Shown here: positions 27,898 through 39,710 of the stretch, in pieces
Layout: each line of letters opens with the position of its first letter
How positions within the stretch are numbered: the first letter of the stretch is position 1
Source: Escherichia coli
GTDB lineage: Bacteria > Pseudomonadota > Gammaproteobacteria > Enterobacterales > Enterobacteriaceae
DNA length: 64,000 bases
Direction: 5' to 3' (one strand)
Assembly: GCF_046105845.1 (NCBI RefSeq)
Contig: NZ_CP151004.1
Position numbers and translations under genes: made by a program
The notes under the pieces: model-generated
Database searches by the model: none
Seen by the model: only the letters and a program-made list of their open reading frames with translations
What the model was told of the DNA's origin: nothing

Positions 27898-28416
27898 ATG
27901 GTAGATAAACGCGAATCCTATACAAAAGAAGACCTTCTTGCCTCTGGTCGCGGTGAACTGTTTGGCGCTAAAGGCCCGCAATTGCCAGCACCAAACATGC
28001 TGATGATGGACCGTGTGGTCAAAATGACCGAAACGGGTGGTAACTTCGACAAAGGGTATGTTGAAGCAGAACTGGATATCAATCCGGATCTGTGGTTCTT
28101 CGGATGCCACTTCATTGGCGATCCGGTTATGCCGGGATGCCTGGGCCTGGACGCAATGTGGCAGCTGGTAGGGTTCTACCTCGGCTGGCTGGGCGGCGAA
28201 GGTAAAGGCCGCGCGCTGGGCGTTGGCGAAGTGAAATTCACTGGTCAGGTACTGCCGACAGCGAAAAAAGTGACCTACCGTATTCACTTTAAACGCATTG
28301 TTAACCGTCGTCTGATTATGGGCCTGGCGGATGGCGAAGTGCTGGTTGATGGTCGTTTGATCTATACCGCCAGCGACCTGAAAGTCGGTCTGTTCCAGGA
28401 TACGTCTGCCTTCTGA
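27898..28416 (+). CDS. fabA: 3-hydroxydecanoyl-ACP dehydratase/isomerase
   Basis: ORF trimmed to [23 protein letters not shown] (172 aa). Confidence 0.97.
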
Positions 28417-28443
28417 TTATAATCAGACAGAGTATCAAAAGGC

Positions 28444-28473
28444 GAAACCTCCGCAATGCGGAGGTTTCTTTTT
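28444..28473. terminator. Bidirectional terminator between convergent fabA and rmf
   Basis: GAAACCTCCGC-aat-GCGGAGGTTTC followed by TTTTT. Confidence 0.75.
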
Positions 28474-28485
28474 AAAGAGACAGAA

Positions 28486-28653
28486 TCAGGCCATTACTAC
28501 CCTGTCCGCCATGGCTTCTCGCCAGCCTCCCAGCCATTGTGACCTTTGATTCAGCGTCTGATAGGGACACATTTCTTTTGAGCGTCCGGCGATGCCGGCC
28601 TGATAACCACGTTGATGTGCCCGTTCCAGGCGATCTCGTTTTTGTCTCTTCAT
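28486..28653 (-). CDS. rmf: Ribosome modulation factor
   Basis: Minus-strand translation gives MKRQKRDRLERAHQRGYQAGIAGRSKEMCPYQTLNQRSQWLGGWREAMADRVVMA (55 aa); ORF track shows only a different-frame 65-aa ORF at 28472..28669. Confidence 0.93.
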   Translation of the reverse strand: MKRQKRDRLERAHQRGYQAGIAGRSKEMCPYQTLNQRSQWLGGWREAMADRVVMA

Positions 28654-28852
28654 GCCTCGTTTCCCTCATACTGGTTTCTGGTGGAAAAGAAAACAGTGAT
28701 TACTAAATGTGCAATCACAGTTAAGCAATACCGCGAATCATAACTGCCGTCAATGCGCAAAATTCACGCCACTGTCATATTTGTGAGCTACACGGGCATG
28801 TCGGTTGTACAAAAAATGTGAAGAGGAACAACTTTTTCCGCAAGTTAGAAAC

Positions 28853-28886
28853 AAAAAAACCGCCTCAGGCAACATACCGGAGACGG
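28853..28886 (-). terminator. Candidate terminator after pqiC
   Basis: CCGCCTC...GAGACGG stem with one G-U pair, followed on the minus strand by a U-tract. Confidence 0.45.
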
Positions 28887-28908
28887 TTATATTTACAAAT
28901 CTTTATGA

Positions 28909-29472
28909 TTACGGTAGACGCTTTATCTCTTGCGCAATAGAAGCGGCTTCCTGACTCCAGACACTGGCCAACACTTTAACCATTTCATCGTAACCATCCT
29001 GAGTTTGCACCCCTTCCAGACGGAACGGACGTTTGATCAGTTGTCCCTGGTGGTTCAACAGCCATTCACCACTGACGATGACCTTGCCATCATAGCGACC
29101 GTTAAACTCCGTTACGGTAACATTGAGCGTGTCCTGGGCGCTTCCCAGAGGCTGGGAGGCAACCACCCAGCCGGGCAGTTGCGTACTCAGGTTGGCAACC
29201 AGAGTGTTGCGCAACTGTTGATCCAACGGGCTGGCCCACAAGTTGTTGTTGGCAATCACATACTTCACATCACTGGTTTGATAAACCACACCATTTCCGG
29301 CCAGATAGTCAGGAACAGCGACCTGCTCTACCCATAACAGGCGATTACCCTGGCTGGCGGTACTTTGTGTACCGCTCTGCACCACAGGTAACTGGTAATA
29401 GTTTTTATTAATTTCGCCGGAGCTGCATCCGGCCAGCCACAGTGCTGCAATCGTCACTAGCCACTTTTTCAT
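28909..29472 (-). CDS. pqiC: Lipoprotein PqiC (YmbA) of the PqiABC lipid-transport system
   Basis: 187-aa ORF with lipoprotein signal MKKWLVTIAALWLAGC. Confidence 0.93.
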   Translation of the reverse strand: MKKWLVTIAALWLAGCSSGEINKNYYQLPVVQSGTQSTASQGNRLLWVEQVAVPDYLAGNGVVYQTSDVKYVIANNNLWASPLDQQLRNTLVANLSTQLPGWVVASQPLGSAQDTLNVTVTEFNGRYDGKVIVSGEWLLNHQGQLIKRPFRLEGVQTQDGYDEMVKVLASVWSQEAASIAQEIKRLP

Positions 29473-31109
29473 TGTTTCGCCCTCTTCGGCTCTGGATCTT
29501 TTTTGTCCTTCGCTTCAAATACCAGCGCGTTACTCTTCTCGTTGAGCGTTTTCAGCACCGGTTGCAGTTCTCGCAACACCTGATCAAGTCGCTGCATATC
29601 CGCCACCATCTTGTTGTAGGCTGCGGAGCCAGGCTGGAAGCCCTGCATGCTGCGATTCAATTCACGCAACGTTGACTGCATATCCGTCGGTAACTGCTGC
29701 ATCGACTGGCTGGCGAGGATCTTGTTCATGCTATCCAGCGTCGTTTGCAGGTTTTTCATTGTGCGCTGACTTTCAGAAAGCGTACTGGTTGCCTGTTCAA
29801 TCATCGGATTCAATGGCAGTTTGTTGATCTTATCCAACGCTTCCATCAGTCGTTGCTGGATTTGCGCCAGACCGCCGCTAACGGTCGGGATAATCTGATA
29901 ACCATTAAATTCACGAATACCGGTTATTGCAGGCGTATTTGGATAGAAATCGAGATCAACATACAGTGCGCCAGTGACCAGGTTTCCGGTTTTCAGCGAT
30001 CCGCGTAAACCACGTTTCAACAATTCGCCAAGGTGCTCAACAACATCCGCATTTTCGCCAAGCTGCATTTTCAGCCGCTCTGGCTCGATACGAATCAGTA
30101 CCGGAATACGGTAATCATCGTTAAATGTCTGACGCATATTCGGCGCAAAGAATGGCACTTTGCTTACGGTACCCAGGCGAATACCCCGGAATTCTACCGG
30201 AGCTCCCGGTTGCAGACCGCGTACCGAATCTTTAAAGAACATCAGATAATCAATGTGATCGGTGTACAACGAATCCTGAATGCTCTTCTGATCATCATAC
30301 AAAACGAAAGCTGTTTTCGGTGCCACTGGCTGCCCTAAATCCAGACCTTCCGGCACATCAAAGCTGACACCGCCACTAAGCAGCGTTGTCAATGAGCCCA
30401 TCTCCACACGCATTCCCGCTGACGTCAAATCAACCGCAATGCCACTATCTTTCCAGAAGCGAACATTGCTGGTCACCAGACGGTCATAAGGTGCATTGAT
30501 GAACAGTTGATAGCTGATATTGCGTTTTTGCGTATCGAAGGTGCTGGTTTCAACCGAACCTACCCGATAGCCACGGAACAGCACGGGATCTCCTGGCGAG
30601 AGCTGCCCGGCTTTTTTGCTATCGAGAATCACACGAATACCTTTCGCATCAGGCGGAGCCAACGGTGGCGAGTCCAGCAAATCGTATTTATCCATTTTGC
30701 TGCCTTTCGCGCCTGGCTGCAGTTCGATATAAACCCCAGACAGCAGCGTTCCCAGGCCGCTAATCCCTTCTCGACCAATCTGCGGTTTCACCACCCAAAA
30801 GACGGTATCTTTATGCAGCAATTTTTCCATACCGGAATTCAGCCGCGCTTTGATTTCAACGTGCGTCAAATCATCAGCCAGTGTGGCGCTTTCAACCACG
30901 CCGACGTCAACGCTACGGCTTTTAATGGTGGTTTTACCACCTTCTATTCCTTCCGCATTCGCGGTGATCAGGGTCACTTCCGGCCCCTGATGGCTGTAAT
31001 GATAAAAAAGAACCCAAGCCCCAATGAGCGCCGTGACGATAGGAAATATCCACACGGGAGACCAGTTCTTCACTTTCTGGATTTTGGCTTCCCCATTATT
31101 AGATTCCAT
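29469..31109 (-). CDS. pqiB: MCE-domain periplasmic protein PqiB
   Basis: ORF trimmed to MESNNGEAKIQKVKNWSPVWIFP (546 aa); three MCE domains; ATGA overlap with pqiC. Confidence 0.93.
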   Translation of the reverse strand: MESNNGEAKIQKVKNWSPVWIFPIVTALIGAWVLFYHYSHQGPEVTLITANAEGIEGGKTTIKSRSVDVGVVESATLADDLTHVEIKARLNSGMEKLLHKDTVFWVVKPQIGREGISGLGTLLSGVYIELQPGAKGSKMDKYDLLDSPPLAPPDAKGIRVILDSKKAGQLSPGDPVLFRGYRVGSVETSTFDTQKRNISYQLFINAPYDRLVTSNVRFWKDSGIAVDLTSAGMRVEMGSLTTLLSGGVSFDVPEGLDLGQPVAPKTAFVLYDDQKSIQDSLYTDHIDYLMFFKDSVRGLQPGAPVEFRGIRLGTVSKVPFFAPNMRQTFNDDYRIPVLIRIEPERLKMQLGENADVVEHLGELLKRGLRGSLKTGNLVTGALYVDLDFYPNTPAITGIREFNGYQIIPTVSGGLAQIQQRLMEALDKINKLPLNPMIEQATSTLSESQRTMKNLQTTLDSMNKILASQSMQQLPTDMQSTLRELNRSMQGFQPGSAAYNKMVADMQRLDQVLRELQPVLKTLNEKSNALVFEAKDKKDPEPKRAKQ

Positions 31110-31113
31110 ACTG

Positions 31114-32367
31114 TCAGGACTCCTCATGCTCTGATTCAGGTTGACGATCCCACGACAAACGCGGGTCAAACGTCATAGCAGAAAACATTGTCATTATGAC
31201 GACTAAAGCAAACATTAATGCACCCATTGCCGGATAAATACTCATTAAACCTCCCATACGCACCAGCGCCGAGAGCACCGCGATAACGAAAACGTCAATC
31301 ATCGACCAGCGGCCTACAAACTCAACAACTTCATAAATCAAATGCATTCTTTCACTGTCGCGCTTGCCATGCCCTTTAGCATCCCAACACAACCACGCTA
31401 TGGCGATCATCTTTAACGTTGGCACCATAATACTGGCCAGAAAGATAACCGCAGCGACGGGATAAGATCCTTCGCTCCATAACAGGATGACCCCAGCGAG
31501 AATCGTCGATGGCATCTTCGAGCCTAATAAATCCGTCACCATGATGGGCAAAATATTAGCCGGAAGATACAGCATGATGGACGTAACAAGCAGCGCGAGT
31601 GTCCATTGCAGGCTGTTTCTACGTCGAACGTACCCTTTGGTACTACAACGCGGGCACACGGGTTCGTCAGCAGGAAGGATTGCCGTACAACAGGAGCACG
31701 AACGCAGCCCCTGACGTATCCCCGTGACGCCAGGTTTTAGCGGCTGGCGCAGTTCTGGCATCGGGGCGATATCGTCCCATAACCAGCGACGATCAACGCA
31801 CTGAAAGGCGCGCAGTTGCAGGACACAAAATAAACACCAGGGGAGAAAGCTGCTGCCGACACCAATGCTGCCGTAAACCATCAGTTTAACGAAACTGACC
31901 AGCACACCCGCGAGGAAAATCTCCGCCATTCCCCAGGTTTTGAGTTGAAAAAGCACCCGTGCCAGTTGCTCTTTTAAACGGACCGGTAATTCCGCGCGAT
32001 TCACCAGTAACAGAATGGTTATCAGACAAAACGCGGGAACCAGTTGCACAAACAACAGGAAAAAGGTGCCGAGGCTGGCGTAGTCCTCAGAAAAAAGCAC
32101 GCCGGGAATTTCCAGTAATGTAATTTCACTGGTAACTCCTGCAACGTTCATATTCACAAAAGGAAACAAGTTGGACAGCAACAGCATGAACAGTGCAGCC
32201 AACGCATAGGCGGTGGGACGCTGCCGAGGGGCATCCCACGCCACGGTTAACGTTGTGCCACACCGGGGACATGCCGCTTTCTGACCATGCTCAAGGCGCG
32301 GTAACGCCACCAGCATGTCACACTGCGAGCACAGGATGTGCTTCGCGGCATGATGATGTTCGCACAT
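31114..32367 (-). CDS. pqiA: Paraquat-inducible membrane protein PqiA
   Basis: 417-aa ORF MCEHHHAAKHILCSQCDMLV with CxxC pairs. Confidence 0.95.
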   Translation of the reverse strand: MCEHHHAAKHILCSQCDMLVALPRLEHGQKAACPRCGTTLTVAWDAPRQRPTAYALAALFMLLLSNLFPFVNMNVAGVTSEITLLEIPGVLFSEDYASLGTFFLLFVQLVPAFCLITILLLVNRAELPVRLKEQLARVLFQLKTWGMAEIFLAGVLVSFVKLMVYGSIGVGSSFLPWCLFCVLQLRAFQCVDRRWLWDDIAPMPELRQPLKPGVTGIRQGLRSCSCCTAILPADEPVCPRCSTKGYVRRRNSLQWTLALLVTSIMLYLPANILPIMVTDLLGSKMPSTILAGVILLWSEGSYPVAAVIFLASIMVPTLKMIAIAWLCWDAKGHGKRDSERMHLIYEVVEFVGRWSMIDVFVIAVLSALVRMGGLMSIYPAMGALMFALVVIMTMFSAMTFDPRLSWDRQPESEHEES

Positions 32368-38589: not shown

Positions 38590-39600
38590 TCAGATATTGC
38601 TAACGATTTCTTTAATCAAAGGCGGACCTTTAAAAATAAAACCAGAATAAATTTGCACCAGTGAGGCCCCCGCAGCAATCTTTTCACGCGCAGCGATAAC
38701 CGAGTCAATGCCGCCAACACCGATGATCGGTAAGCGACCGTTTAATTCCTGTGACAAGCGGCGAATAATTTCTGTGCTTTTTAACTGAAGCGGACGACCA
38801 CTTAAGCCACCGGTTTGATCACAATTTTTCATTCCCTGAACCAGAGAACGATCGAGCGTGGTATTGGTTGCAATAACGCCATCAATATTATGGCGAACTA
38901 AACTATCGGCAACCTGGATCAATTCTTCTTCAGAAAGATCCGGCGCGATCTTCACTGCGATCGGCACATATTTATGGTGCATCGCTTGCAAATCATTTTG
39001 CTTATTTTTAATCGCGGTTAAGAGATCATCCAGCGCTTCGCCATATTGCAGAGTACGTAATCCCGGTGTATTCGGCGATGAAATATTGATGGCGATATAT
39101 CCCGCATAAGCATAGATTTTTTCCATACAAATCAGATAGTCATCTTTACCCTGCTCCACCGGCGTATCTTTATTTTTGCCGATGTTAATACCCAGGACGC
39201 CATCATAATGGGCTTTTTTTACGTTCTCTACGAGGTTATCAACGCCAAGATTATTAAAGCCCATACGGTTGATCAAACCTTCGGCATCTACCAGACGAAA
39301 GAGACGCGGCTTGTCATTACCTGGCTGTGGACGTGGCGTGACGGTACCGATCTCGATCGATCCAAATCCCATCGCGCCTAACGCGTCAATGCACTCCCCG
39401 TCTTTATCAAGACCGGCTGCCAGACCAAGCGGATTTTTAAACGTCAGGCCCATGCAGTTAACAGGTTTCGCAGGCACTTTCTGCCGCACCAGTGCTTCAA
39501 ACGGCGTTCCTGTAATACGGCGTAATTGCTGAAAAGTAAACTCATGAGCGCGCTCTGGATCGAGCTGGAAAAGGGCTTTACGAACGAAGGGGTAGTACAT
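38590..39600 (-). CDS. pyrD: Dihydroorotate dehydrogenase (quinone)
   Basis: ORF trimmed to [20 protein letters not shown] (336 aa). Confidence 0.95.
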
Positions 39601-39710
39601 GAACTCTCCTGGATTCCCGGTGTGCAAACCGGGGGCGTATTATGTGCGAGTTCGGACCAAAAGGGAATTGACCTGTGGCAAAAAAAGCGCAAACGTTTTC
39701 CGAGCCTGTT

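Follow-up and report, generated by a model that had tools for sequence, protein, structure and literature searches.

The minus-strand frame running from position 28653 to position 28486 of the window (the whole 64,000-nucleotide stretch of Escherichia coli DNA that was analyzed) is, almost beyond doubt, the E. coli rmf gene, which encodes the 55-aa ribosome modulation factor (RMF), a small basic protein. Judged by its substitutions across species, this frame evolves as a protein-coding frame, and the longer open reading frame (ORF) of 65 aa that overlaps it on the same strand is, by the same comparisons, a chance open frame and an artefact. The locus is already known and annotated with respect to its protein, frame, neighbours, promoter region and terminator, and nothing new follows for biology from its identification, since rmf encodes one of the best-characterized small proteins of E. 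coli. What the case does illustrate is the way in which an ORF filter set at 60 aa conceals genuine small genes and may put a longer, out-of-frame ORF in their stead. The coding features concerned are these:

28486..28653, minus strand: rmf coding sequence (55 codons plus TGA), ribosome modulation factor, from translation, PDB, Pfam and RefSeq.
28472..28669, minus strand: spurious 65-aa ORF (MRETRHEETK...), in frame +2 relative to rmf, from Pfam, orthologue stops and pN/pS.
27898..28416, plus strand: fabA, the convergent neighbour, which shares a hairpin with rmf, from RefSeq (L001 2599..3117) and ORF translation.

The original prediction held that translation from the ATG at 28653 gives RMF exactly, and re-translation bears this out. 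The minus strand from 28653 to 28486 reads from ATG to TGA with no internal stop or frameshift and specifies MKRQKRDRLERAHQRGYQAGIAGRSKEMCPYQTLNQRSQWLGGWREAMADRVVMA, followed by the stop; the coordinates predicted for the gene and for the overlapping ORF were both exact. All 55 of its 55 residues (100%) agree with the chains called "Ribosome modulation factor" in PDB entries 6H4N, 6H58 and 9IOT, which are structures of the E. coli 100S ribosome, and in 4V8G, among them chains 6h4n_v and 4v8g_AV, and the same sequence bears the name RMF_ECOLI in a protein-cluster look-up. No evidence spoke against this identity. The Pfam family PF04957 (RMF) matches it over profile positions 1-52 of 53 with a score of 79.6 bits, where the curated cut-off is 27.9 (E = 1.7e-22). 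In a 100% identical E. coli genome, the RefSeq rmf coding sequence at L001 3187..3354 corresponds to window positions 28486..28653, and the genes lie in the order pqiC-rmf-fabA-ycbZ, with pqiC, fabA, ycbZ, matP and ompA annotated in the flanks. The orthologous position, pqiABC-rmf-fabA, is occupied by rmf in the RefSeq annotation of both the identical locus and K-12.

Comparison with E. coli K-12 rmf (b0953; UniProt RMF_ECOLI) revealed no difference in the gene itself: the protein is the same at 55 of 55 residues, the DNA of the coding sequence, leader, promoter core and terminator is the same, and so are the neighbours pqiC, fabA and ycbZ. Relative to K-12 MG1655, the proximal ~190 nt upstream of rmf are identical, and the only changes are six substitutions, located in the terminal part of pqiC and in the distal spacer. 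A 701-base stretch enclosing the locus is present in 5425 of 5426 complete E. coli genomes. As a separate observation, the 701-bp segment of the window from 28300 to 29000 reaches at least 99% identity in only 462 of those 5425 genomes, and yet rmf and its proximal control region in the window are identical to K-12.

In stationary phase, RMF binds the 30S subunit near the anti-Shine-Dalgarno sequence and, together with HPF, turns 70S ribosomes into inactive 100S dimers (PMC10746276, PMC8778775). Given its identity with the protein seen in the 100S structures, the RMF encoded in the window would be expected to bind the 30S subunit and induce 90S/100S dimers in stationary phase. The gene is a single-gene operon (PMC10746276, Table 1); its regulation by ppGpp, CRP and polyamines is described in the literature, and CsrA reportedly influences rmf at the level of transcription and by an indirect route (PMC10746276).

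For comparisons beyond E. coli, orthologues were collected by running one degenerate DNA pattern (CPY-N24-WLGGW) against a species-level genome collection, which returned 120 loci, of which 119 encode an RMF orthologue. All 119 orthologues retrieved share with the Pfam family (for example, Vibrio RMF, PDB 2JRM) the CPY and WLGGW motifs and an N-terminal MKRQKRDR. The proteins of other orders differ in the length of the C-terminal tail, which gives products of 52-60 aa, the Enterobacterales having the short 55-aa form. The sole match that is not a typical RMF lies in the alphaproteobacterium Roseovarius amoyensis (L059, 7899-7946); it belongs to an acidic protein of 65 aa that has only the CPY...WLGGW core in common with the family and lacks the basic MKRQKRDR N-terminus. 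In several genomes, rmf is present as a pair of diverged paralogues that lie on separate contigs (L015/L016, L030/L031, L055/L056 (Colwellia spp.) and L110/L111 (Alteromonadaceae MAG)). Two features of codon choice also emerged from the collection. Nearly all of the 117 gammaproteobacterial orthologues use the rare codon AGA for Arg3 of RMF (AUGAARAGACA; 28643..28653 on the minus strand of the window, loci L003-L122), and synonymous sites in the first ~15 rmf codons are nearly invariant within the Enterobacteriaceae.

The absence of rmf from the ORF track, which the original prediction had pointed out, is real and is purely a length effect, because 55 aa falls below the 60-aa listing threshold. 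At the default setting, only the 65-aa ORF (28472..28669, minus strand) is listed between 28420 and 28900; when the minimum is lowered to 20 aa, the 55-aa ORF at 28486..28653 appears beside it. The two ATGs lie 16 nt apart, so that, relative to rmf, the 65-aa ORF is read in frame +2, and this ORF is the longer of the two because it extends beyond the gene by 16 nt on the upstream side and by 14 nt on the downstream side. A different discrepancy of the ORF track was seen nearby, where the pqiB ORF (29469..31169, minus strand) is listed from a TTG start with 566 aa, compared with 1641 nt and 546 aa in RefSeq, so that its N-terminus is over-extended.

Codon statistics alone discriminate poorly between the two frames. 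The comparison of codon periodicity suggested with the original prediction was run as a codon-usage log-likelihood model, with the 27 long ORFs in the window as its training set, and the rmf frame did come out ahead, but the frames were barely separated: the rmf frame scored -12.3 bits, the 65-aa frame -17.6 and the best plus-strand frame -14.4. Codon statistics are weak here because rmf is rich in rare Arg and Gly codons (AGA, AGG, CGA and GGA). The codon score being too weak to decide, cross-species substitution analysis was used instead. Over the first 50 codons of 115 distinct orthologue sequences, nucleotide diversity at rmf codon positions 1, 2 and 3 was 0.24, 0.16 and 0.57, respectively, and the third position of the 65-aa frame falls on rmf position 2, the least variable of the three. 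Pooled pN/pS (Nei-Gojobori, against 15 Enterobacteriaceae) was 0.16 for the rmf frame, compared with 2.03 for the 65-aa frame and 1.5 for the third frame.

The 65-aa frame, which had been predicted to be spurious, indeed behaves as one that selection does not see as protein. At least one stop interrupts it in 98 of the 117 complete orthologues, and even within the Enterobacteriaceae the codons at which they occur differ from genus to genus. Its amino-acid identity in that family (0.61-0.91) is always lower than the nucleotide identity (0.82-0.96). A Pfam search found no match (E <= 1) for the 65-aa ORF, nor for a 55-aa ORF on the plus strand. Its ATG (28669..28667) is preceded by CCACCAGAAACCAGU, which contains no Shine-Dalgarno sequence, and the G of this ATG is itself the first base of the distal Shine-Dalgarno element of rmf, GAGGG. 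We considered whether the 65-aa ORF could nonetheless be a genuine gene in its own right, lying across rmf in another frame in a dual-coding arrangement. Its 65 codons are open in the window, its ATG is invariant in 17 Enterobacteriaceae, the first ~15 codons of the frame are conserved in the same 17, the frame is open throughout the coding sequence in 19 of the 117 orthologues, and a handful of GenBank entries give it as a protein. The conservation of the ATG and of the first ~15 codons is attributable to a nucleotide-level constraint on the translation-initiation region, the stops occurring later and at various places. With the family match and ribosome-binding site missing, the stops scattered and pN/pS at 2.03, we give a second, dual-coding gene practically no chance, and the reading of this ORF as a chance open frame stands.

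The public databases contain the out-of-frame sequence all the same. It was deposited as ACT70914.1 from E. coli O157:H7 TW14359, under the name "ribosome modulation factor", and as a hypothetical protein from three HMP E. coli strains (EFJ93212.1, EFU50567.1 and EGB79092.1). These deposits are a recurrent gene-caller error. The protein cluster of the 65-aa ORF has 4 members, whereas that of the true RMF has 417 members and is found on at least 1000 contigs.

The upstream AUG might matter in another way, namely as a decoy start at 28669 on which ribosomes occasionally initiate, producing a non-conserved out-of-frame peptide and lowering rmf translation, so that it would act as a regulatory upstream ORF. 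Its position has to be read against the two Shine-Dalgarno-like elements of rmf:

28663..28667, minus strand: SD1, GAGGG at -14..-10, the distal Shine-Dalgarno of rmf, from sequence; invariant in 17 Enterobacteriaceae.
28655..28658, minus strand: SD2, GAGG at -5..-2, the proximal Shine-Dalgarno-like element, from sequence and PMC7177335.

A ribosome docked on SD1 cannot place the AUG adjoining it on the 5' side in the P site, owing to Shine-Dalgarno spacing. The AUG also has no Shine-Dalgarno of its own, and its frame relative to rmf is not kept, the offset being -16 in E. coli and -14 in Vibrio. What speaks for a decoy is that AUGAGGG is invariant in the Enterobacteriaceae while the bases immediately 5' of it vary, and that NUGAGG (AUG, GUG or UUG adjoining GAGG) recurs in Vibrio, Shewanella, Colwellia, Pseudoalteromonas and Rheinheimera. 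This conservation is equally well explained by the published structured initiation region, in which SD1, ~11 nt upstream of the AUG, lies in a bulged-out region and SD2, 2 nt upstream of the AUG, lies in double-stranded RNA (PMC7177335). A literature search that included retapamulin profiling found no paper tying rmf to an out-of-frame start. A decoy function for the upstream AUG appears very unlikely. With its distal, bulged SD1 and its duplexed SD2, rmf belongs to the polyamine modulon (PMC7177335).

The region upstream of rmf divides into a short leader and a longer stretch of control DNA:

28654..28718, minus strand: untranslated leader of rmf, 58 nt according to published work (start at 28711) or ~65 nt by comparative evidence (start near 28718).
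28725..28753, minus strand: core promoter, with -35 TTGACG (28753..28748), a 17-bp variable spacer and -10 TATTGC (28730..28725), from conservation.
28754..28847, minus strand: upstream regulatory DNA of rmf, not leader, with the block ATGACAnTGGCGTGAATTTTGCGCA conserved in a 32-Enterobacterales alignment.
28848..28873, minus strand: terminator-like hairpin and T-run downstream of pqiC, with stem 28873..28859 and tail TTTTTTTGTTT; the pqiC coding sequence ends at 28909.

The original prediction had described all of 28654..28850 as a long upstream leader. A transcribed leader does exist, but it comprises only the proximal ~58-65 nt, in keeping with the published start at -58 and the conserved promoter, and the rest (28712/28719..28850) is promoter and transcription-factor-binding DNA. 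Yoshida et al. (PMC6134199) used the 256-bp pqiC-rmf spacer as a promoter probe, placed a single RpoD start 58 nt upstream of the initiation codon and reported that the spacer binds transcription factors; Fig. S1 of that paper gives the probe sequence with no start-site mark. In our alignment of 32 Enterobacterales, a conserved TTGAC(G), a 17-bp free spacer and a conserved TATTNN are followed by an invariant GTG at 28718..28716, at the base of a hairpin. This conservation suggests that the rmf start may lie at about -65. A scan of 28250..29050 with the sigma-70 consensus reported no promoter because the -10 element lacks the final T.

Could 28654..28850 instead be transcribed as one long leader, for example from a start farther upstream or by read-through from pqiABC? 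A 255-bp intergenic spacer is unusual in its length for a gene of only 55 codons, and a conserved block lies upstream of the -35 element. Against this reading stand the single RpoD start at -58 and the binding of transcription factors to the upstream spacer (PMC6134199), the conserved TTGAC-17-TATT promoter at 28753..28725, the terminator-like hairpin with its T7 run after pqiC (28873..28848) and the single-gene status of the rmf operon (PMC10746276, Table 1). Taken together, these points make a long leader extremely unlikely. In the arrangement that we prefer, rmf is monocistronic, with a sigma-70 promoter ~60-100 nt upstream of the ATG; its leader of 58-65 nt contains a 5' hairpin as well as a pyrimidine tract that could base-pair with both Shine-Dalgarno-like elements; and transcription would end at the hairpin that also serves the convergent fabA.

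Two elements of this leader can be placed on the sequence:

28696..28718, minus strand: hairpin GUGAUUGC-N7-GUAAUCAC, located at, or close to, the 5' end of rmf mRNA; flagged as terminator-like by the scan and supported by covariation.
28683..28695, minus strand: pyrimidine tract UGUUUUCUUUUCC, predicted partner of the SD1-SD2 region (28655..28667), from minimum-free-energy folds.

For the 5' hairpin there is good evidence of a selected RNA stem, as read from its pattern of covariation. Compensatory double changes occur in 6 of its 8 pairs among 32 Enterobacterales, and 91% of the alignment cells are paired. None, or at most 1, of 500 shuffles reached the observed counts, and all slid registers scored far lower. 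Moreover, the hairpin begins exactly at the +1 position predicted from the conserved TTGAC-17-TATT promoter, and therefore would be a 5'-terminal stem-loop. With the published start at -58 (28711; PMC6134199), the transcript would lack the 5' arm of this covarying stem. In the passage of a review that cites Aiso et al. 2005, the rmf mRNA half-life of 24-120 min is attributed to a hairpin in the 5' UTR (PMC6060826). As described in that passage, the published hairpin could be either the one at 28696..28718, part of whose stem the -58 start excludes, or one that sequesters the Shine-Dalgarno elements. The likeness to 5'-terminal stabilizing stem-loops, for which the ompA 5' UTR is the paradigm, lies in the fact that rmf in the window too has a covarying stem-loop at the very start of its predicted transcript and that rmf mRNA is reported to be long-lived. 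The element at 28696..28718 is probably the mRNA-stabilizing 5'-UTR hairpin.

Covariation is silent on the second element. The pyrimidine tract is nearly invariant in the Enterobacterales, as is the Shine-Dalgarno region opposite it, and zero double changes were seen between the two sides, which speaks neither for nor against the predicted pairing. The predicted pairing of tract and Shine-Dalgarno region nonetheless fits the published picture of a bulged SD1 and a duplexed SD2.

At the other end of the gene, the original prediction placed a hairpin terminator shared with fabA at 28444..28473, coordinates that correspond to the stem-loop plus the plus-strand TTTTT. The hairpin is indeed common to both genes, terminator-like on both strands and conserved in 26 Enterobacterales:

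28444..28468, both strands: hairpin GAAACCTCCGC-AWT-GCGGAGGTTTC (loop here AAT), between convergent fabA (plus strand) and rmf (minus strand), from the terminator scan.

The scan returned 5 terminator-like sites in the region, compared with 0.7 +/- 0.7 expected from shuffles. The fabA/rmf hairpin has 11 pairs, 7 of them G-C, and a 3-nt loop, and is followed by a T-run on both strands, with the tail TTTTTAAAGA on the plus strand and a weaker one, GCCTTTTGAT, on the minus strand. In bidirectional intrinsic terminators, the same G+C-rich stem-loop lies between an A-run and a T-run, and the transcripts arriving from both directions therefore finish with a hairpin followed by a U-tract. The element at 28444..28468 has the anatomy of such a terminator and, as far as its tails allow a prediction, would be stronger for fabA than for rmf. 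It differs from the general type in having an interrupted U-tract on the rmf side (GCCUUUUGAU) and a stem core that is invariant across the order. Among the 26 Enterobacterales, this core (CCTCCGC/GCGGAGG) never changes and the loop varies freely, and one basal pair shows a compensatory change from A-U to G-C in 4 of the 26 species. PMC1636475 mentions published sequencing of cDNA for the 3' ends of rmf. We also observed that the invariant core amounts to a pair of anti-Shine-Dalgarno-like and Shine-Dalgarno-like sequences and that, the flanks and loop being variable, its conservation goes beyond what a terminator needs.

Between the rmf stop codon and the terminator lies one further conserved element:

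28473..28482, minus strand: 3'-UTR motif UGUCUCUUUA, an invariant island in 16 Enterobacteriaceae.

In these 16 species the island, which reads (U)GUCUCUUUA in the transcript, is set between variable flanks that carry indels. It is complementary to UGAAGAGACA (28643..28652, minus strand), that is, to the U and G of the start codon and to codons 2-4. The predicted duplex between island and start region has an energy of -12 to -17 kcal/mol, with z-scores of -2.3 to -4.6 against shuffled 3' UTRs. The apparent support is inflated by the shared ancestry of the species, and the 5' partner is fixed by other constraints. The same duplex is present in the predicted fold of the whole transcript, which is more stable than its shuffles (z = -3.6). 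Outside the Enterobacteriaceae sensu stricto, the 5'-3' complementarity was absent from Hafnia, Photorhabdus, Providencia, Xenorhabdus and Rosenbergiella (z ~0), and it is therefore a family-level feature at most. We regard the predicted pairing of the 3' UTR with the start region as a lead, not a finding. It is conceivable, though in our estimation rather unlikely, that rmf mRNA in the Enterobacteriaceae is closed end to end by pairing of the 3'-UTR island with the start codon and codons 2-4, and that it carries in addition a 5'-terminal covarying hairpin implying a start near 28718 and not 28711. If this were true, end-to-end closure and the 5' hairpin could explain the unusually long life of rmf mRNA and its translational silence until the structure is opened by polyamines or stationary-phase signals. 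Both the comparative support for the 5' hairpin and the 3'-UTR motif bear on a known but mechanistically thin story of rmf mRNA stability.

A search of Rfam returned nothing at gathering score near the rmf locus. Under permissive settings, only sub-threshold matches appeared, on the two terminator hairpins, with 18-24 bits compared with gathering scores of 40-60. Elsewhere in the window, Rfam matches at gathering level were found for a PyrD leader (39595..39668, minus strand; 97.9 bits) and for an 85-nt tRNA (12656..12740, plus strand).
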